29,319 nucleotides of DNA, taken from positions 1 through 29,319 of IMG/VR virus record IMGVR_UViG_3300020045_005072. The stretch is one strand, 5' to 3'. The notes beneath the pieces are model-generated. The model saw nothing but the letters and a program-made list of their open reading frames with translations. It was not told the origin of the DNA and did no database searches. The translations under genes were made by a program, and so were the position numbers. How positions within the stretch are numbered: the stretch's first letter is position 1; every line of letters begins with the position of its first letter. Below are positions 2,897-17,388 of this stretch, in pieces. This DNA is from a virus. Taxonomy: Duplodnaviria > Caudoviricetes.

Positions 2897-3216
2897 TATT
2901 TTTTAAGTATTTGGTCGTTTATATTCTTTATGATATTTTTCGTTGCGTCTGGAATTAACTCTTTTGTTTTAATCCACAATGCATTTTTTTCTCCTGAGTT
3001 TACGCCACGTGGGTAATTGAAAGCTCCATAATACATTTGATATAAATTAAGTTCGGTATCGCTTTTCAATCTAAAGTTAACCTCGTCTTGTAACCTACCA
3101 GTATCACGTCGAAGTGTTGGACGTGCCTCATCAATAATTAGTTCGCCTACTTTTAAAAGTTCTTCTCTAATTATTTTATCAGCTTTTAATTGTCCTTTAC
3201 TCCTCCTTTTCGCCAT
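2896..3216 (-). CDS. HK97 gp10-like tail completion/neck protein
   Basis: EARPTLRRDTGRLQDEV matches the A....DTG.L..S motif of the gp10 family; basic N-terminus; tail gene context. Confidence 0.55.
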   Translation of the reverse strand: MAKRRSKGQLKADKIIREELLKVGELIIDEARPTLRRDTGRLQDEVNFRLKSDTELNLYQMYYGAFNYPRGVNSGEKNALWIKTKELIPDATKNIIKNINDQILKK

Positions 3217-3732: not shown

Positions 3733-3777
3733 TTTTCTATGTTTCAATGGTTATCCCTACTCTATAAGCTTTTCGGG

Positions 3778-3969
3778 TTACGCTATAATATAATTTTTTT
3801 CTAATGTAAATTCAATATCGTAATGTGTTGTTTCTTCGCTTCCACAAGTAAGGTAATAAATAATTCCGCTTGGTCTTATAATTATTCCAGTTACTATTCT
3901 TGCTCTTTGTTCTGAATCAGTTGCAAGAAATACTATTTGCCCTATATCAAATTTTGTTTTAATATCCAT
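3778..3969 (-). CDS. Small hypothetical protein (SH3-like beta fold possible)
   Basis: KFDIGQIVFL start; translationally coupled to the upstream gene (TAATG). Confidence 0.6.
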   Translation of the reverse strand: MDIKTKFDIGQIVFLATDSEQRARIVTGIIIRPSGIIYYLTCGSEETTHYDIEFTLEKNYIIA

Positions 3970-7001: not shown

Positions 7002-7130
7002 TTCAATACCATACTCAAAAAATAATAACTTTTTCTCCATCTCCTTAGCTTTTTCGTAATTCCTATCAATATACGCTTGTCTTATATCTTTTTTTAGTTG
7101 TTCGAGTTTGTTTAGTTTAGTTGTTCGCAT
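6999..7130 (-). CDS. Small hypothetical protein, 43 aa (not in ORF track)
   Basis: MRTTKLNKLEQLKKDIRQAYIDRNYEKAKEMEKKLLFFEYGIE; fills the gap between VRR-NUC and terS. Confidence 0.5.
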   Translation of the reverse strand: MRTTKLNKLEQLKKDIRQAYIDRNYEKAKEMEKKLLFFEYGIE

Positions 7131-7453
7131 ATTAATTTTTGAAATTCTTTTAAACTTCTAATTAAATAATATTTAAAACCTAATAATTCAATTCTATTTT
7201 GAAAATTTTTTTGATTATCAGATTGAATGCCTTTTTCTGTCTTTACTTCAATGAATAATATCTTATTTGGTAAAAGTACAATTAAATCACTTGCACCTCT
7301 TAAAAGTCCAGTATTAATTTTTCTTTTAGTTTCAATTGGATTTATAGAATCGTTTGGTACTGAAAATATCATACACCTGTTTTCGTTATCTTTTAGGCAG
7401 TAATTATTGTTAAACCAAATAAAAATTTGTTGTTGAATATTATTTTCATTCAT
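7112..7453 (-). CDS. VRR-NUC (PD-(D/E)XK) nuclease / Holliday-junction resolvase-like
   Basis: E..IQ, VPN, G..RGASDLI, FIEVKTEKG.QS..QK.F motifs. Confidence 0.9.
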   Translation of the reverse strand: MNENNIQQQIFIWFNNNYCLKDNENRCMIFSVPNDSINPIETKRKINTGLLRGASDLIVLLPNKILFIEVKTEKGIQSDNQKNFQNRIELLGFKYYLIRSLKEFQKLICEQLN

Positions 7454-7454
7454 A

Positions 7455-7697
7455 ATGTAATTTTTAAATTATTGTTTTTCAGTTAGTTAAGTATAAAATT
7501 ACAAATGACAAAATATTTTTCACAGACTTTAAATATAAATTGTATTTTTCATTTATCCATATAAAAGTAAATAATGAAAGTGTATATATAGATTATAGTA
7601 ATATTTATGTAATTATGTAATTTTAGGGTTTAAGTATTGATTTTATTAGGGTTAAGCAATGACATTTGTTTTGTCACTTTTTGTCATTTTTGTCATT
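7455..7697. other. Putative replication origin (AT-rich, short direct and inverted iteron-like repeats)
   Basis: 240-bp non-coding gap right after the primase-helicase, with ATGTAATT x3, TTGTCA x3, and inverted AATGACA x2 and AATTACA. Confidence 0.5.
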
Positions 7698-9855
7698 CTT
7701 GTTTTTGTGTATAAAGGCAAAAACCTCGCATACTATTACCAAATTTAGTATAAGTTTTATTTTCTAATTTGTTTTTAGTGATTATATCTTTTACATCGTA
7801 TTTAGTAACTACAAAGTTTGCAATACCATTAAGAAAATTTAATATCTGACCTTGATTTAAAATTACTTCGATATCAAAGAATTTATTTCTTTCAAGTGAA
7901 AAGTTTTCAAAAAATAAATCTTCAACTGGCATATTCTCTATATTTTTAATTGTGTTGTTTTGCAAGAAATCAATATCTTCATTTGAAAATATTTTCCAAT
8001 CAAATCCATTTTTGTAAAGTTGATACGCTTCTAACCATAAATTAGCGGTGTTTAATGAAATTAAACGATTGTAATCAATTTTTTCAACGTTTATAGGTAA
8101 TATACGTCTATTACCAGTTACGTCTTTTAAAACGTCTTTTTCGTTACTTGTTCCACATAAAGAAGCGCGCCTTTTTAACTTAGCGTAATAGCTCGAATAA
8201 GGTAAACGAATATCAACCATATTTGTATCAGCTACTTTTTTAAAATCTTTTACGTCACGTGTTGCAAGTCCACCAAACTCATCATCTAAAACTAATAAAC
8301 CTTTAACAAGATTGTAAATACTATCTTTATCCTTTGCGTCTATTTTATGTTCAATCAAATACTTTTGTAAATCGGCTGGTAATAAGTTTCTAAAGAATGA
8401 TGTTTTTCCAGTGCCTTGTTTTTGACCGCAAAGAACTAATGTTAAAGGCGAAACTTTAGGTTCATTTATTGGAGCTAACCAATTGTGAACACAACCAACA
8501 ATCCATTTTTTAAAAGCCCAATTATTATATTCTGAGTTTGGTTCTATGCAATTAATATAATCATCAATAACGCTTTCTGAGTTTTCGTGTAGGTTACTTT
8601 TAAAGAACTCAGTTAACGGATTAAATAAAGCGGTATGTTCTGAATTAATCATATCGCGAACGTCTGACTTAGTTGGTGCGAAATCTAAATAATTTTTACA
8701 CGCAAAGTAAATAGTATTAAGTTTTACATCATCGAGTAATTGACCATTAATAAATATTTCATTAGTGATACTATCTTTTACTGGATTATAATTTTCGTAA
8801 ATAAAACTTTGTAGTTTTTTTGAATCAGTTAATGTTTCGTCTAATTGCTTAAAATCTTTTTTGCTATCAATTAAAAATTTAATTAAATCATCATCTGCAT
8901 CAGTAATGTTATTTATTTTTTCAAGTGATTTTTTTACACTTTCAATAGTTGGTGTTCCTTGACTTTTAGCAACCGAAACCCGATTTATAATAGTTTCCGT
9001 TTTTTCGGAATAAAGTTTTAACCCTAATTCTTTAGCGTAAAAATAAATAGTAGATATTGAAACTTGACCAGAACCTTTACAAAAGTTTTTATAGTGCCTT
9101 TCAATTTTGTTAGCATCGTATTTTGAACCATATTTACAAATAGCATCAAAATAAGTAAATCCACTTTCTCCAAATTTAGAAGCTATTCCAAAACCTATTC
9201 TAACATACCTATCATAATCATCTTGACATAAATCTATTTGTTTATCTTGTATTTGTGAAAGTATATTTTGAAAATCATCATTAACAAAAACAAAATTATG
9301 TACTTTTTCTTTTTTTACAACTTGTTTAGCTATGAACTTTTTTGAGTTTTCATTTAAAAACAAATAAGGATCATAAGATATAAAGCGCAAACGATTTTTG
9401 TTTTTACAACTTGGGTCAATAGCTACGTTAAAATTATCCCAATAGTACTGAGCTAATTCATTAAAACTTTCTAAAAACTTGTTAGGGTTTATTTTAACAA
9501 ACACACAAAGTCCATCGCCACCAAAAGAACGGTGTGACAACATTGTATATTTATCATTGTTGATTTGATTAAGTAAAGTTAAGTCAACATCATCATCAAT
9601 ATCAATAACAATAAGTCCGTTTAACTCTTCAATATTATCAGCGGTTTTACTTCCGTTTTTCATTACTGCCGAACCAGTTATAACTGGAGCTTTTAATTTG
9701 CATTGAGAATAAGCGTCTTTATCTGACTTTACGGAACGTGCTTTAATTACCAAATCTTGATAAGTCCCTTTTTGAACCATATCAATATAATCTTGAATAT
9801 CAATATCGATTTTATCAATACTTTTTGCTGTTGGATATTTACTAAATTTTATCAT
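7693..9855 (-). CDS. Primase-helicase: BT4734/VirE N-terminal AEP-like domain, PriCT-2, VirE/VapE-type P-loop helicase
   Basis: N-terminal GLIVIDID, S.GG.G, D.SCKN..RLRF.SYDP; middle Y.R..RIGF.IA (PriCT-2-like); Walker A GQKQGTGKT, Walker B LDDE, R.PY, SLCGTSN, D.TGNRR. Confidence 0.88.
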   Translation of the reverse strand: MIKFSKYPTAKSIDKIDIDIQDYIDMVQKGTYQDLVIKARSVKSDKDAYSQCKLKAPVITGSAVMKNGSKTADNIEELNGLIVIDIDDDVDLTLLNQINNDKYTMLSHRSFGGDGLCVFVKINPNKFLESFNELAQYYWDNFNVAIDPSCKNKNRLRFISYDPYLFLNENSKKFIAKQVVKKEKVHNFVFVNDDFQNILSQIQDKQIDLCQDDYDRYVRIGFGIASKFGESGFTYFDAICKYGSKYDANKIERHYKNFCKGSGQVSISTIYFYAKELGLKLYSEKTETIINRVSVAKSQGTPTIESVKKSLEKINNITDADDDLIKFLIDSKKDFKQLDETLTDSKKLQSFIYENYNPVKDSITNEIFINGQLLDDVKLNTIYFACKNYLDFAPTKSDVRDMINSEHTALFNPLTEFFKSNLHENSESVIDDYINCIEPNSEYNNWAFKKWIVGCVHNWLAPINEPKVSPLTLVLCGQKQGTGKTSFFRNLLPADLQKYLIEHKIDAKDKDSIYNLVKGLLVLDDEFGGLATRDVKDFKKVADTNMVDIRLPYSSYYAKLKRRASLCGTSNEKDVLKDVTGNRRILPINVEKIDYNRLISLNTANLWLEAYQLYKNGFDWKIFSNEDIDFLQNNTIKNIENMPVEDLFFENFSLERNKFFDIEVILNQGQILNFLNGIANFVVTKYDVKDIITKNKLENKTYTKFGNSMRGFCLYTQKQE

Positions 9856-11503
9856 AATATTGTTGTAATTTTTCTTTTAATTTTGATTTTAAATAATTTA
9901 ATGTTCGGTTTGTTTTACTTGGTAGTGAGTTGAAAATTTTAATAAAAGGTTCTCCTAAGATACGATTAATTCTTTTATCAAAAGTTCCATTTAGTAATGA
10001 TTTTTGATAGCTTCCAAAAGTAACACTATTTTTTACAAATAAGTCAAACGTTTGATTAATAAGTATTTTAAAAGCGAAATTTATATCTTCATTAATTGAT
10101 TTAACGTACTTTATAATTTTTTCGCCACTCGGATATATTTGTTTTACTTTAACTGCCGTTATTTTATTTGTAACTATTTCAACTTCTTTTTCTTCGACTT
10201 CAATTATAGGCTCTTCATAATTACAATTAGGACAAACTTTTTCTGACTTCATTTTTAAGAATCCGCAATTGTTACACTCATTAATATCATCTAAACTTTC
10301 TTTTAATTGCTTGGGCGGTTTCAATCCCTTAAAAAATATCTTTTCCCAATTCCTTGTTTTATCTGACCACATTCCTAATCTATCAGAGTTGCCACCGCCA
10401 TCAATGAATATAAATTTATCTTTGTAAACTTTTTTAGTAGGTCTTGCACCACGTCCAGCAATTTGAATAAATAATGATAGTGAAGCGGTAGGACGTGCCA
10501 TAATAATTGCTTCAACATCATCAACATCAAATCCTTTAGTAAAGCAAGAAACATTTAAAAGTATTGCATCACGTTCATTTTCAAACCATCGTATTAAAGG
10601 CTTTCTTTCGCCTTTTTGGTTATTTACGGAATCATACATTTTTACATTATATCCTTTTTCTTTAAACATTTCGTAAATCAAAAGATTAACTTTAGTTGAA
10701 GCGGTAAATATCATTGTCTTTTTCCCAAAACAAAGTTTTTCGTAGTTGTGCATAATGTCAATTTGTACCTCTTCTTTTTCGTAAGTTTGAGCAATTGATT
10801 CAGCGGTAAATTCTCCATCGCTACCAGTCTTTAAACTTGAAGTATTAACCGAAATTGAATAAAGTTCCTCATCTACTAAAAAGTCATTGTCTATTAAATA
10901 ATCAATTCCAACACCCACAACAATATCATCATAAACGTCAGACATAGTTTCTTCTTTTGTCCAAACTTTCATTTCATAACCGCAATGAGTTACGTTTTCA
11001 AGTTCTTTTAAAAATGGTAATTCTGTATTACATTCGTTGCATTTATAAAATTTAGTTCTTCTAAGTCTTACTGGTGTTGCAGTAAATCCAATAATTTTAC
11101 AATCTTTTACATAGTCGAATATTTTATTAAATATCCATACGTGAGCCTCATCAATTATAAGATAATTAAATCTTTCAATTAAATTGGGCTTCTTTTGTAA
11201 ACGATTAAATAAAGTTTGCGCCATAGAAACGACAACTTTATTATTAGGAAATATTTTATTTTTACTTTCAAAAGTAGCTACATCAACACCTTGTTTTAAA
11301 AATGTTTTATATGTTTGAGTAACCAAATCTTCACTATCAACTAAAATTAAAGTATCGCTATTTAGTTGTTTTGTTAGTTCGGTAAAAATAACCGTTTTTC
11401 CAGAACCTGTTGCTGCTTGAACACAAAGTTTGTCAAATAGTTTTATTTTATATATAATTTTATCTAATAAATCTTGTTGATATGGTCTTAAAATCTTTTC
11501 CAT
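9842..11503 (-). CDS. SF2 DEAD/DEAH-box helicase with C-terminal Zn finger
   Basis: LRPYQ, ATGSGKT, IIDEAH, GFTATP, KGFD, QIAGRGAR, C-terminal CNNC...CPNC. Confidence 0.93.
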   Translation of the reverse strand: MEKILRPYQQDLLDKIIYKIKLFDKLCVQAATGSGKTVIFTELTKQLNSDTLILVDSEDLVTQTYKTFLKQGVDVATFESKNKIFPNNKVVVSMAQTLFNRLQKKPNLIERFNYLIIDEAHVWIFNKIFDYVKDCKIIGFTATPVRLRRTKFYKCNECNTELPFLKELENVTHCGYEMKVWTKEETMSDVYDDIVVGVGIDYLIDNDFLVDEELYSISVNTSSLKTGSDGEFTAESIAQTYEKEEVQIDIMHNYEKLCFGKKTMIFTASTKVNLLIYEMFKEKGYNVKMYDSVNNQKGERKPLIRWFENERDAILLNVSCFTKGFDVDDVEAIIMARPTASLSLFIQIAGRGARPTKKVYKDKFIFIDGGGNSDRLGMWSDKTRNWEKIFFKGLKPPKQLKESLDDINECNNCGFLKMKSEKVCPNCNYEEPIIEVEEKEVEIVTNKITAVKVKQIYPSGEKIIKYVKSINEDINFAFKILINQTFDLFVKNSVTFGSYQKSLLNGTFDKRINRILGEPFIKIFNSLPSKTNRTLNYLKSKLKEKLQQYYDKI

Positions 11504-12102
11504 TATAAAAATTTAAAAGTTAAACCATAAGCGTAAGGATAAATATTTCTGCAACTTAAACTTATGCTTTTTCTATCATATCCAAGCACTCTACTACATT
11601 CTCTTATAGATTCAAATTCATAAAGTTTTTTTTGCGAGTTATAGTCAAAAACTCCTATTTTTTTCTTTTTACTTTCATTTAATAACCTTAATTTATTATT
11701 ATTAAACTCATTTTTTTTAAGAGATTGTGAATGCTTTAAACGTGTTTCTAAACTTTTTTTTGGTACTTTTAATCTTGCTAAAGACATTTTTTGTTTAGTT
11801 TCATTACAAAGTTTTCCACTTCTATCGTTTGTTTTAACTAAAACACAATTCAAACCATTTTTAGTAATGACAGAATATAAATCTTGATAAAATCTTTCTT
11901 TATCATTTAATTCACTTTCTAAACACTCGCAAACAATTTCAAAATTATGATTATCAACACCATACTTTAAAAAAGATGCATATAGTATTTTTTGACCTTT
12001 GCAATTCAATCTATTATAATCGTAAAATCTTTTTTCAATATTAATACTTTGACCTATATAAATTCTTTTATTAGGACTTGTAATTTTGTATATTCCTATC
12101 AT
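11503..12102 (-). CDS. Free-standing GIY-YIG homing endonuclease with NUMOD-type DNA-binding domains
   Basis: MIGIYKITSP...IYIGQS...R, ETKQKMS (NUMOD3-like), FESIRECSRVLG (NUMOD1-like). ATG at 12100-12102 is preferred because the ORF-track start lies inside a hairpin. Confidence 0.9.
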   Translation of the reverse strand: MIGIYKITSPNKRIYIGQSINIEKRFYDYNRLNCKGQKILYASFLKYGVDNHNFEIVCECLESELNDKERFYQDLYSVITKNGLNCVLVKTNDRSGKLCNETKQKMSLARLKVPKKSLETRLKHSQSLKKNEFNNNKLRLLNESKKKKIGVFDYNSQKKLYEFESIRECSRVLGYDRKSISLSCRNIYPYAYGLTFKFL

Positions 12103-12109
12103 AATATTT

Positions 12110-12213
12110 AAAAAAGAGAAAACCCTCAACACGATGCACTACTATCGGTCGAGGGTTTCTCGGTTACATTGTTTTCACAACGTTATACTTTATGTCGGTA
12201 GTGCAACGACATT
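12110..12213 (-). ncRNA. Structured 5' leader RNA A (three hairpins, loop-loop complementarity, terminator-like end)
   Basis: ATGTCG-TTGCACTAC-CGACAT; ACGTTGT-GAAA-ACAATGT; GAGAAACCCTCGAC...AGTAGTGC...GTTGAGGGTTTTCTC followed by T6. Confidence 0.65.
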
Positions 12214-12214
12214 A

Positions 12215-12222
12215 CAAACCTA
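12215..12222 (-). promoter_or_regulatory. Bacteroidota -7 promoter element TAGGTTTG
   Basis: Matches TAnnTTTG; intergenic; immediately precedes leader A. Confidence 0.65.
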
Positions 12223-12229
12223 CAAAAAA

Positions 12230-12260
12230 TAATCCGAACTTAAAAATTAAATTCGGATTA
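12230..12260. promoter_or_regulatory. Inverted repeat TAATCCGAA-N13-TTCGGATTA (terminator for SSB or operator over the -33 region)
   Basis: Perfect 9-bp arms; followed by a T-rich run on the minus strand. Confidence 0.45.
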
Positions 12261-12300
12261 AATAAAAAGTTTTTATTAGTAAATCTAAATTAGGGTTGTT

Positions 12301-12585
12301 TCAGAAACCACCACCAACTTTCTCAACTTTCCATCCTTTAATCGAATTAAAGTATTTAGTTTCTCCTTGTGGATTAACCCACTCACGCCCTCCTAAATTA
12401 ATCGAAACTTTTACTTTATCCCCAACGTTTAAACCGTTTAATAAATCGCATTTATCTTGAGGAAACTCAATCATAATCGATTGTGGGTATTGTTCCTCTG
12501 TACTTACTACTAATTCACGTTTTTTAAATGATGCAGATACTTGTTGTTCCGCTCCTACTACTTTGATAATTCCTTCTACTTCCAT
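12301..12585 (-). CDS. DUF3127-family single-stranded DNA-binding protein
   Basis: F.KRELVV.TEEQYPQ.I.IEF.QDK...NLGGREW.NPQGETKYFNSI.GW; follows the exonuclease and annealase-like genes. Confidence 0.85.
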   Translation of the reverse strand: MEVEGIIKVVGAEQQVSASFKKRELVVSTEEQYPQSIMIEFPQDKCDLLNGLNVGDKVKVSINLGGREWVNPQGETKYFNSIKGWKVEKVGGGF

Positions 12586-12589
12586 TATG

Positions 12590-13237
12590 TTAAAATTTTA
12601 ATTTGTTAATTGATTCGTTTATTTTTTGTTGTAATGCTTCTGTATGTCTATAAATTTCAGTTACAACTTCTGAAATAGTTTTAAATACTGGTTTTGCCTC
12701 AGTTCCTATATTAACTAAACTTTCACGTGTTAACTTTGAAACGAATAATTGTTTTACGCTTTCTGGTCTGTATGAACAGAAATAAAATTTTTCTAACTTC
12801 GGATTAACCGCAAAATTATGAACGCATTGATTAATATGTTTCAATGGTATTTCGTTACTTAAGCACGTTCTAATATGCTCTTTAGCCTCAGGACATTTAA
12901 TTTCACAGCCTATAGTTGCGCACTTTGAAATTCCATCAGGAGAAACACCAAGCAGTTCATTATCTGATTGAATCCACCCAACTTCTAAAAATTCAACACC
13001 GCAATATTTTGTAAGTTCAATTCGTGCTTGTGGTTCTAAAAGTTGTCCATTTTCCATTGCATCTGATTTATAACTTTCTTCGTCCTCATCGTATGGTTCG
13101 GTTAACTCTGCTAGTAATTCAATTAGCAGAGTATCTGATTTTACAAATAATTGTTTTGAACGTGTACCTCCGATTTTCCCGTGACGTAATTCGTGCCACT
13201 CTAAACTCCCTTGTTCTAAATTATGATAGATTTTCAT
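12590..13237 (-). CDS. YqaJ/lambda-exonuclease family recombination nuclease
   Basis: EQGS.EW...R.G.I, AM..G..LEP.AR, SPDG, EIKCP motifs. Confidence 0.9.
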   Translation of the reverse strand: MKIYHNLEQGSLEWHELRHGKIGGTRSKQLFVKSDTLLIELLAELTEPYDEDEESYKSDAMENGQLLEPQARIELTKYCGVEFLEVGWIQSDNELLGVSPDGISKCATIGCEIKCPEAKEHIRTCLSNEIPLKHINQCVHNFAVNPKLEKFYFCSYRPESVKQLFVSKLTRESLVNIGTEAKPVFKTISEVVTEIYRHTEALQQKINESINKLKF

Positions 13238-13752
13238 TACTTAAGAATTAATTTTAATCTATCTTTTTCAGCTAATATTTCAGTTGTGTTTTGTTCCGAT
13301 TGTGTTAAAGAGGTCCAAGCACTTTGCAGTTCAGATAAAGTTTTTGCTTGGTTTAATCTGTACTTGCAATCAATAAGATCAATAGGCTTTGCAATTATAT
13401 CACTTGGTTTTGAAGTTGCGATACGTATTGCATCGTGAAACTCCCCAAACGCTTTAATACGTTTTGTAGTTAGTTGAATTTTTTTACCAATCATTTCCTC
13501 GATGTATTCCGTGCCGGTAACTTTTTTTAAAGTTTTACGATTGGTAGCATTAAGAATAATTGGTTTGCACTCTTCGAAAATCAAAGTAATTACTTGTTCT
13601 TCAATTTGTGATTTCTGATTAAAAACTGATTCGTTTTTAATTTCTTTAATTGTAACTATTTTATCAATAGTTTTGCCCTCTGCATCCATTAAATCCCAAC
13701 CTCCTAAATAATTAGGGTTGCGCAGTTTGTCAATGTGAGTTCTTGTTTCCAT
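13237..13752 (-). CDS. Putative single-strand annealing/recombination partner protein
   Basis: Coupled directly upstream of the exonuclease; NPNYLGGWDL and KPIILNATN.K motifs. Confidence 0.45.
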   Translation of the reverse strand: METRTHIDKLRNPNYLGGWDLMDAEGKTIDKIVTIKEIKNESVFNQKSQIEEQVITLIFEECKPIILNATNRKTLKKVTGTEYIEEMIGKKIQLTTKRIKAFGEFHDAIRIATSKPSDIIAKPIDLIDCKYRLNQAKTLSELQSAWTSLTQSEQNTTEILAEKDRLKLILK

Positions 13753-13768
13753 AATTTCTAATTTTAAT

Positions 13769-13912
13769 TTATTTATCTAATTTTTTAATTATACACGCAC
13801 ACACTATAAGTCCTAAAAATACCAATGCGAAAAATCGGTAATCATAAAACGCTCCTAAAATAACACCTATTGCGGATGTTACGCAACCTAGTAGAAATGT
13901 TGTTTGTTTCAT
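13769..13912 (-). CDS. Small two-TM membrane protein, 47 aa (not in ORF track)
   Basis: MKQTTFLLGCVTSAIGVILGAFYDYRFFALVFLGLIVCACIIKKLDK. Confidence 0.6.
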   Translation of the reverse strand: MKQTTFLLGCVTSAIGVILGAFYDYRFFALVFLGLIVCACIIKKLDK

Positions 13913-13914
13913 AT

Positions 13915-14196
13915 TTATTGTTTTTTAGTATAATATCCTTTACCAGTATGTTTTCTTGGATATTCGAATATTTCATTTAACATACTTTCATTTACATTTT
14001 TTCTAAACAATTGTGTTTTGCCTTTTTTAGGATGATTTAAACAAGTAGAAACAGTCATTTTTGATAAATAAATGTTAATTCTTGTTGAGCCGTCAGAATA
14101 AGATATTAATCCTATATTTTCTTGAAAATCAATTTTATTAAAACTATTTTTATTTGCAATAGTCTCAATTTTCTCTAAAGGTATTAAGTAATTCAT
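13915..14196 (-). CDS. Conserved-looking hypothetical protein, 93 aa
   Basis: RINIY...TVSTCLNHPKKGKTQLFR...PRKHTGKGY motif; has its own promoter and leader RNA. Confidence 0.75.
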   Translation of the reverse strand: MNYLIPLEKIETIANKNSFNKIDFQENIGLISYSDGSTRINIYLSKMTVSTCLNHPKKGKTQLFRKNVNESMLNEIFEYPRKHTGKGYYTKKQ

Positions 14197-14210
14197 AATC
14201 TCTATTAATT

Positions 14211-14305
14211 AAAAATGCCTTACTTTTACTCACGAAACTGGAACTTTCGTTTTCAAAATAAGGCTAAATGATTTTTTTCGAGGTAGTTCCAGTACCTTTA
14301 ATCGA
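14211..14305 (-). ncRNA. Structured 5' leader RNA B (two hairpins with complementary loops, terminator-like end)
   Basis: AGGTA-CTGGAAC-TACCT and GCCTTATTTT-GAAA-ACGAAA-GTTCCAG-TTTCGT-GAGT-AAAAGTAAGGC followed by ATTTTT. Confidence 0.65.
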
Positions 14306-14309
14306 TATG

Positions 14310-14317
14310 CAAATGTA
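14310..14317 (-). promoter_or_regulatory. Bacteroidota -7 promoter element TACATTTG
   Basis: Matches TAnnTTTG; precedes leader B. Confidence 0.65.
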
Positions 14318-14343
14318 GTGAATAAAACTTATTTTGCAAGTGT

Positions 14344-14457
14344 TTACTTCCTTTTTTTCTTTTTAGGCTTAATATTCGTAGCCTTATTTCTTTCTTTACC
14401 TTTTGGTTTTGCTTCATCGTGGAAATGTTTGTTTCCGAAATATTTAGGTGTTGGCAT
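14344..14457 (-). CDS. Small basic protein, 37 aa (not in ORF track)
   Basis: MPTPKYFGNKHFHDEAKPKGKERNKATNIKPKKKKRK; typical AATAATTATG initiation region. Confidence 0.5.
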   Translation of the reverse strand: MPTPKYFGNKHFHDEAKPKGKERNKATNIKPKKKKRK

Positions 14458-17380: not shown

Positions 17381-17388
17381 CAAATATA
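17381..17388 (-). promoter_or_regulatory. Bacteroidota -7 promoter element TATATTTG
   Basis: Consensus match, downstream of a terminator. Confidence 0.65.

Follow-up and report, generated by a model that had tools for sequence, protein, structure and literature searches.

Candidate attenuator leaders with complementary hairpin loops at the head of the replication and recombination operons of a Caudoviricetes virus and in related phages

Leaders A and B

The window analyzed in this study is the whole of a 29.3-kb virus record (IMG/VR IMGVR_UViG_3300020045_005072; Duplodnaviria, Caudoviricetes; 29,319 nt), all listed genes of which lie on the minus strand. These genes encode a portal, an endolysin, terminases, a YqaJ exonuclease, a DUF3127 single-strand binding protein, a GIY-YIG endonuclease, an SF2 helicase, a primase/VapE protein and a VRR-NUC protein, together with many small proteins; the closest cultured relatives of the helicase are those of the Flavobacterium Muminviruses (43% identity). 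Two leader RNAs, here called A and B, are the subject of this work. An earlier reading made from the letters alone (the sequence-only reading) had described them as each consisting of a TAnnTTTG promoter, hairpins with mutually complementary loops, and a U-tract just before an ATG, and had placed them in front of the replication (A) and recombination (B) operons. We found all of these features on the minus strand, and the gene calls behind both leaders agree with that placement.

In Bacteroidota the main sigma factor has TAnnTTTG as its −7 element, which usually lies 4–5 nt 5' of the transcription start site (PMC6847099, PMC7366714, both sources in part). In promoter A the element reads TAGGTTTG (12222-12215), and the PMC6847099 consensus with the 4–5 nt spacing predicts a start at about 12210. 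Leader A then forms a 5' hairpin (A-P1, 12192..12212, loop 12206-12198), an optional linker hairpin with a GAAA tetraloop (A-P2, 12166..12183), which ends 4 nt upstream of the terminator stem, and a long terminator-like hairpin followed by six U (A-P3, 12110..12161; stem 12161-12116, loop 12143-12136, U6 tract 12115-12110), with the ATG at 12102. The complementary loop sequences are TGCACTAC (12205-12198) and GTAGTGCA (12142-12135), within which GCACUAC (12204-12198) and GUAGUGC form the kissing strands. The folding z-score of leader A is −5.75. An ATG at its 5' end is, by eye, absent from close homologues.

Promoter B (14310..14339) combines the −7 element TACATTTG (14317-14310) with a TTG 19 nt upstream (14339-14337), and its predicted start is at about 14305. 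Leader B has a 5' hairpin (B-P1, 14281..14297) and a terminator-like hairpin followed by A-U5 (B-P3, 14211..14264; stem 14264-14217), before an ATG at 14196. Its two 7-nt loops are CTGGAAC (CUGGAAC in the RNA, 14292-14286) and GTTCCAG (GUUCCAG, 14244-14238), an internal loop of B-P3 carries the strands GAA/AGUA, and the folding z-score is −3.15.

The short and the long hairpin reported by the sequence-only reading are thus present in both leaders, and the third hairpin of A, A-P2, had been overlooked. The loop complementarity was also correctly seen, including its extension to 9 bp in B, but a kiss that leaves the stems intact has 7 bp in both leaders, because pair 8 of A and pairs 8–9 of B use loop-closing bases. 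A and B indeed have no common sequence (223 of 500 shuffles score equally high). That they display complete covariation with each other did not hold up, since two leaders that cannot be aligned cannot covary; genuine covariation is instead seen within the homologues of each. When the whole window was scanned, A and B were the only two-hairpin sites with at least 6 complementary loop bases, and 30 block-shuffled copies of the window scanned at 7 or more such bases yielded no site.

Distribution and covariation of the leader family

Loci were collected around relatives of the helicase and of a 171-aa protein encoded behind leader B; with four GenBank loci they comprise 120 sequences in 84 genome groups (locus L123 was dropped). 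Our detector returned 106 matches, and removal by hand of 16 of them (no promoter or open reading frame (ORF), reverse-strand images, one duplicate) left 90 curated copies in 55 groups. Such detectors are sensitive to the threshold used, one of them finding 32 of the 55 helicase loci. When elements were picked blind to their loops, by promoter motif, 5' hairpin and terminator only, at least 6 complementary loop bases occurred in 56 of 294 elements, compared to 927 of 86,142 cross pairs; among blind picks with terminators of −14 kcal/mol or below followed by an ATG, the count was 47 of 74.

A leader was found by script within 800 nt upstream of the helicase in 44 of 55 helicase loci, some of which are near-duplicates, versus 1 of 153 shuffles. 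It stands directly before the helicase gene in 36 of the 44 and behind one or two small genes in the other 8. Two further loci add to these: L080, where another detector found a leader, and L114, which carries the same sequence. A variant leader in L091 (9680-9806) has a P1 loop that matches a 6-nt bulge in the terminator stem rather than its tip. The remaining 8 loci had no promoter motif within 160 nt. In one helicase locus, L121, the helicase ORF (225 onward) spans at least 907 aa and the match to our query begins about 1.1 kb into it, which suggests a large in-frame insertion such as an intein.

Six cultured Flavobacteriaceae phages carry the leader: snusmum6-1 (2 copies), mumin9-1, lillamy9-1, 11b, Freya_1 (2 copies) and phi18:3 (2 copies, at 3165 on the minus and 23595 on the plus strand). 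Shuffled sequence totalling 267 kb gave no match. No leader was found in FpV9, phi12:1, Leef_1 or 26 kb of P12024S; a few matches without the leader layout were judged to be chance. Two annotated hypothetical genes overlap leaders and are probably false ORFs (snusmum6-1 gp042, L028:14631-14726; phi18:3 gp058, L170:23539-23640). The genes behind the leaders encode helicases, primase-helicases, SNF2-type helicases, methyltransferases, the phrog_21613 protein, initiator-like proteins, HNH and GIY-YIG nucleases and small proteins of no assigned role, and the cassette occurs across unrelated phages as well as in antirepressor cassettes.

The sequence-only reading had proposed loop covariation among homologous leaders as a check. 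For this we aligned 14 A-type and 7 B-type leaders (MAFFT), the rows having been picked by a detector that requires complementarity, and counted misaligned rows (three A, one B) as breaks. Pairing cells overall amounted to 90.7% (A-type) and 93.2% (B-type), values reached by 0 of 500 shuffles, and no shuffle in 500 matched the alignments on four of five covariation measures for the A homologues and on all five for the B homologues. The kiss helix itself pairs in 87.8% (A-type) and 89.8% (B-type) of cells, with three of its seven pairs changed on both sides in each set, and all five counted pairs of the A-P1 stem are changed on both sides. In two cases (L067/L065 and L122/L072), a single loop-base difference between otherwise identical terminators is matched by a change in the partner loop.

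Independent support came from a model, R1, that is pseudoknot-free and contains no loop-loop pair. Of 151 genomes from the genus, R1 matched 4 at E ≤ 0.001, and although it is blind to loop pairing, all four matches have complementary loops. All four lie among prophage genes: three precede antirepressor-type genes (KilA-N or P22_AR_N) and one precedes a small ORF, an HNH gene and a replication initiator gene. Among 151 genomes of the family R1 gave seven weak matches (E 0.002–0.05), none of them a full leader by eye; a second model, R2, applied to 151 genomes from the genus, gave eight partial matches, each of them a plain terminator lacking the kiss, and the 171-aa protein used as a query against the genome contigs found no match. 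In two Flavobacterium prophages we also observed c4-2-like RNAs less than 1 kb from the leader-antirepressor cassette (L125:638-718 and L128:2365-2445; 40.8 and 38.8 bits, gathering threshold 41). As a trans partner of the leader the c4-2-like RNA was rejected, since in these two prophages it has no complementarity to the leader loops.

The promoter motif, the hairpins, the U-tract and the complementarity of the loops are therefore common to a recurring family of promoter-proximal, terminator-ended leaders, as had been supposed, and the complementarity is maintained by compensatory change. Hairpins and complementary loops read equally on both DNA strands, which would be expected of a DNA-level structure. 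Yet the orientation relative to promoter, U-tract and ATG is fixed, and the sense strand folds better than the antisense strand in 83 of 90 copies (which were selected on the sense strand). Together with the window shuffles, the loop-blind selection, the covariation, the prophage copies and the helicase-locus shuffles, these observations refute chance complementarity and leave chance or a DNA-level structure with a practically negligible probability.

Genes behind the leaders

The first gene behind leader A encodes a GIY-YIG/NUMOD1 homing-type endonuclease (11503..12102), followed by a block (7112..11503) with the SF2 helicase (9842-11503), the primase/VapE-type protein (7693-9855) and the VRR-NUC nuclease (7112-7453). 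This endonuclease gene is likely an insertion between leader and helicase, because in the relatives L064 and L068 the leader directly precedes the helicase, with no endonuclease between. Behind leader B lies a 93-aa ORF of no known family (13915..14196), and then a block (12301..13912) with a 47-aa hydrophobic ORF, the 171-aa phrog_21613 protein of unknown function, the YqaJ exonuclease and the DUF3127 single-strand binding protein. The 93-aa ORF is likely inserted as well, since locus L161 has a near-identical leader right before a look-alike of the 47-aa ORF. With the genes nearest to both leaders looking inserted, the leader is not nuclease-specific.

The recombination operon is closed by a terminator-like hairpin (12223..12260; 14-pair stem 12260-12230, tail TTTTTTG), whose U-tract runs into promoter A, so that operon A would be insulated from upstream transcription. 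In 45 of 88 copies, and in A, the promoter is preceded by a terminator-like hairpin, and a second promoter motif before the ATG was found in only 1 of 90; expression of the helicase and primase genes would thus have to pass P3. The window also contains a second class of promoter without a leader: three plain modules at 17388, 20332 and 22690 (minus strand), each situated after a terminator and a common AT-rich 27-mer, 21–34 nt before an ATG.

Anatomy of the leader

In the 62 copies that were measured, P1 starts 2–13 nt (mostly 2–6) after the promoter motif, and P3 ends 8–34 nt before the ATG, a same-direction ATG being partly a selection criterion. The linker between them is 57% A. P2 is present in 13 of the 62; linkers without it are 11–28 nt long and unpaired, and those with it measure 26–38 nt in total but 12–23 nt effectively, longer linkers folding their excess length into P2. 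The loops are mostly of four kinds, namely 6/6, 7/7, one or two free 5' bases plus seven pairs, or an 8-bp kiss with a 5–6 nt 3' extension, and these are the geometries of known kissing complexes. One strand of the kiss helix starts with GU in 68 of 90 copies, and the P3 hairpins of 14 of the 62 leaders, including B, contain GAA/AGUA internal-loop strands in either orientation, as in the loop E (sarcin-ricin) motif. The P3 stem ends in G-C pairs like other terminators of the phage.

This layout might instead serve translation or mRNA stability without any transcription stop, the kiss locking a compact fold near the ribosome entry site and protecting the 5' end. The short distance from P3 to the ATG, the beginning of P1 a few bases at most from the predicted transcription start, and the tuning of initiation in F. 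johnsoniae by structure upstream of the start codon (PMC6847099, in part) would all fit such a role. Contrary to it, the stem is followed by a U-rich tract (also a selection criterion) and has the G-C end of the other phage terminators, and in no element does either loop pair over 7 nt or more with the start region; we consider this explanation unlikely.

A 5' hairpin close to the first transcribed nucleotide and a terminator at the 3' end also predict a stable RNA, and a genome can carry several copies. The main product could then be a small RNA with a trans function of its own, as a decoy, sponge or scaffold, the downstream genes being expressed by fixed leakage. However, the curated copies keep the 8–34 nt distance to a same-direction ATG (partly by selection), no sequence is conserved across subfamilies, and the 8–9-nt loop sequences occur once each in the window, so that no outside target is seen there. 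We regard this possibility as quite improbable.

Mechanism

Several familiar means of controlling a terminator were looked for. In 78 elements, the best pairing of P1 plus linker with either basal arm of P3 was −6.4 kcal/mol as compared to −6.1 in shuffled sequences (median p = 0.475; p ≤ 0.05 in 14%), giving no indication of an antiterminator helix. An antisense TAnnTTTG within 80 nt downstream was present in 5 of 90 copies versus a background of 8.4%, and one such motif, at +12081, falls within codons of the GIY-YIG gene. Neither conserved ligand-binding nucleotides nor a conserved leader peptide was found across the family, in which A and B cannot be aligned and the kiss strings are of 45 kinds.

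A protein factor common to the cultured and prophage carriers examined was not found either, most of these loci being partial; the window proteins that they share are replication and recombination proteins and one unrelated late-region ORF. The lack of a common candidate fits an RNA-only device. A small basic ORF was considered as an antiterminator and rejected, having no homologue in the loci and no clear enrichment upstream of leaders (6 of 86 versus 3.3%).

These negatives bear on a further explanation, that a protein, or RNA polymerase itself, reads the kissing fold by its shape (put-like, Q-like or Rop-like) and that P3 is a default-on terminator opened by a phage or host factor, resulting in delayed timing. 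Conservation of shape rather than letters, the frequent GU start of the kiss helix and the GAA/AGUA loops speak for such a signal, and so does the coexistence in the window of leader-gated promoters with plain promoters before small genes. Lambdoid early genes likewise stand behind terminators that are opened by N or put (PMC9378689, in part). Against it are the missing common protein, the unclear enrichment of small basic ORFs, and the movement of the cassette between unrelated phages and antirepressor cassettes; we see this explanation as possible but rather unlikely.

On balance, each leader is probably a portable cis-acting attenuator, in which the loop-loop contact in the nascent RNA likely sets how often the polymerase halts ahead of the downstream genes, be they replication, recombination, methylase, nuclease or antirepressor genes. 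In falling order of confidence, the parts of this mechanism are as follows. The contact would be a true kissing complex with both stems closed; P3 would terminate transcription, so that leader A ends as an RNA of about 102 nt and leader B as one of about 97 nt; the kiss would be the lever on termination, because no other conserved pairing between the domains was found; and, lastly, the kiss would form in cis before the basal stem closes, with the short A-rich linker acting as a tether that delays closure and favors readthrough, until piled-up leader RNAs bind the P1 loop of newly made transcripts in trans, which would release the terminator and switch off the operon.

This last step would make the leader a protein-free RNA timer, with readthrough by the cis kiss first and shut-off by accumulated leader RNA later. 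We put it forward tentatively, as a possibility that carries considerable doubt; it is favored because a single scheme would then suit lytic replication genes, nucleases and prophage antirepressors alike, with no need for a protein. As any matching code of 6–8 letters would work, phages could place the cassette before any dose-sensitive gene.

Several observations weigh against the attenuator, and in particular against the timer. The U-tracts are moderate (4–8 U in 8 nt, mostly 6), and with P3 ending so near the ATG, control could be translational. Linker length is not correlated with helix height (rho = −0.12, p = 0.37), and a rough geometric calculation puts a collinear kiss within reach of 53 of 62 linkers even once the terminator has folded completely (median 1.3 times the span, which is taut without being prohibitive). 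This renders the strain step weak, and the kiss could equally stabilize the terminator. An RNA that kisses itself leaves no loop available to act in trans. Finally, the loop codes show neither orthogonality nor fast change, as detailed below, and hence no sign of trans specificity.

Loop codes

Curated copies and later additions together contain 45 distinct kiss strings. The sequence-only reading had taken the loop to be a selected orthogonal address, and such codes might keep the operons of one phage apart, or distinguish self from non-self among phages (RNA immunity groups). In favor of this, the codes are many, phages with 85–91% identical helicases have different codes at the same site, and three prophage copies precede antirepressor-type genes. 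The codes of different leaders are, however, cross-compatible in 3 of 42 within-genome pairs, compared to 189 of 3407 pairs (5.5%) between genomes, a test of low power because chance orthogonality is already about 95%; and one genome, L065, carries the same code twice.

Divergence of the kiss (10 of 147 positions) is not above that of its flanks (46 of 800; 20 disjoint pairs), and diversifying selection on the codes was rejected on this ground. Nor is the code tied to a gene: that of B precedes genes with eight different N-termini in 15 other contigs. In 12 mirror pairs, moreover, the two loops have traded sequences between hairpins. The Muminviruses carrying the leader are described as lytic only (PMC7077304, in part), which weighs against the attenuator reading as well and means that immunity cannot be the general purpose of the leader. 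The results on within-genome clashes, divergence rate and gene association all being negative, the address claim is not supported, and we regard a selected address as very unlikely, still less probable than a small RNA with its own task. The letters of the code are arbitrary, and the match alone matters.

Relation to known systems

Searches with Rfam 15 covariance models gave no meaningful match at the leaders (window, 9 phage loci and 14 further loci; best overlaps E 0.14–0.33, far below gathering), in line with the earlier impression that this is not a named Rfam family. No published description of the leader was found in a search outside of which lay the supplementary candidates of Weinberg 2017, part of Fremin 2023 and subscription papers; the leader may therefore be listed among the supplementary candidates of those two studies. 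The absence of conserved letters would explain why sequence-based catalogues miss it.

Loop-loop helices of 6–8 bp decide the regulatory fold in the cobalamin riboswitch (L5-L13), in pT181-type attenuators and in the ColE1 RNA I/RNA II pair, and the Rop-bound ColE1 kiss is read by its shape. Unlike the cobalamin riboswitch, the leaders have no aptamer or conserved ligand pocket, and unlike the pT181-type antisense attenuators they show no antisense promoter above background.

The C4 antisense RNA of phages P1 and P7 uses short complementary boxes and is linked to antirepressor control. The sequence-only reading had likened the leaders to P1 C4 and P4 CI. C4 and c4-2 (Rfam clan CL00128) do resemble them in their short, covarying complementary boxes and in the link to antirepressors, the latter strengthened by the three prophage copies before KilA-N or P22_AR_N genes. 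As members of the C4 group, though, the leaders failed: they have no match to the clan, form two or three separate hairpins instead of a closed multi-stem junction, and lack separate target boxes, as the 8–9-nt loop sequences occur once each in the window and no complement of 7 nt or more lies within 25 nt of any start codon.

In the PR'-6S-tR' region of lambda, under Q, a host-type promoter and a nearby terminator precede needed genes. The leaders have this arrangement in common with lambda and with HK022 put; they differ from the former in that no Q-like protein was identified here. HK022 put is a two-hairpin nascent RNA that needs no phage protein, and it differs in that put is not itself a terminator and that the part of the source available to us mentions no kissing or pseudoknot (PMC9378689).

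Precedents for a leader RNA that targets its own transcript are IsrK of Gifsy-1 and the CI RNA of satellite phage P4 (PMC4825925, in part, here and in the following comparison). In both, a promoter gives rise to a short terminated RNA, and part of the transcription reads through into the gene behind, an organization predicted in the 90 copies here; in both, too, the short RNA belongs to its own target. IsrK in addition precedes an antirepressor, as do three of the four prophage copies. Their partner sites, in contrast, lie outside the short RNA (orf45 for IsrK; seqA and seqC for CI) and the pairing is long, and IsrK acts mainly on translation via an upstream ORF. In the leaders both partners are loops of one and the same RNA, one of them the terminator tip, and they pair over 6–8 bp of free sequence.

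For the control of a terminator by an upstream RNA structure that has no sequence in common with it, the precedent is the tug-of-war riboswitches (bioRxiv 10.64898/2026.06.17.733018, in part), in which such a structure can suppress the terminator and which resemble the leaders in that the controlling structure does not overlap the terminator stem. There, a ligand-bound aptamer sits 0–4 nt from the terminator, and the source as available gives no loop-loop contact and no phage example. P1 lies 11–38 nt away in the leaders, another point that tells against attenuation from P1; only the P2 of A-type leaders has a comparable spacing (4 nt in A). The leader is therefore attenuator-like, and IsrK/CI-like in layout, and falls outside C4 RNAs, classical attenuators, riboswitches and antisense attenuators.

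How Bacteroidota phages control their genes has been poorly described, and in most of the relatives examined (44 of 55 helicase loci) the replication module starts with this leader. If a 5' hairpin tunes a terminator by way of the terminator's own loop, attenuation would gain a further mechanism, and a set of programmable elements would become available; should the timer prove true, self-limiting switches of transcription would gain a new class, and Bacteroidota genetics a ready programmable element. The leader is testable in cultured systems, namely snusmum6-1, mumin9-1 and lillamy9-1 on Flavobacterium LMO6/LMO9, and 11b, Freya_1 and phi18:3.

Other features of the window and of the collected loci

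Directly upstream of promoter B lies a 37-codon lysine-rich ORF (14344-14457, minus strand) without a homologue in the collected loci. In one subfamily the terminator loop (L068:6576) matches the 3' basal arm of leader B (14214-14225) as its reverse complement over 12 nt, possibly by chance; no genome with both was seen. At L042:14070, an AT-rich gap holds a different pair of hairpins with 10-nt complementary loops, without the promoter-terminator layout.

Where the primase gene ends, an AT-rich gap (7660-7700, minus strand) contains three TGACAAAA repeats and an inverted partial copy, a probable replication origin. Position 3754-3786 (minus strand) matches the Rfam DUF805b motif at 41.8 bits, above the gathering threshold, with a weaker copy in the relative L079 (1679-1711).

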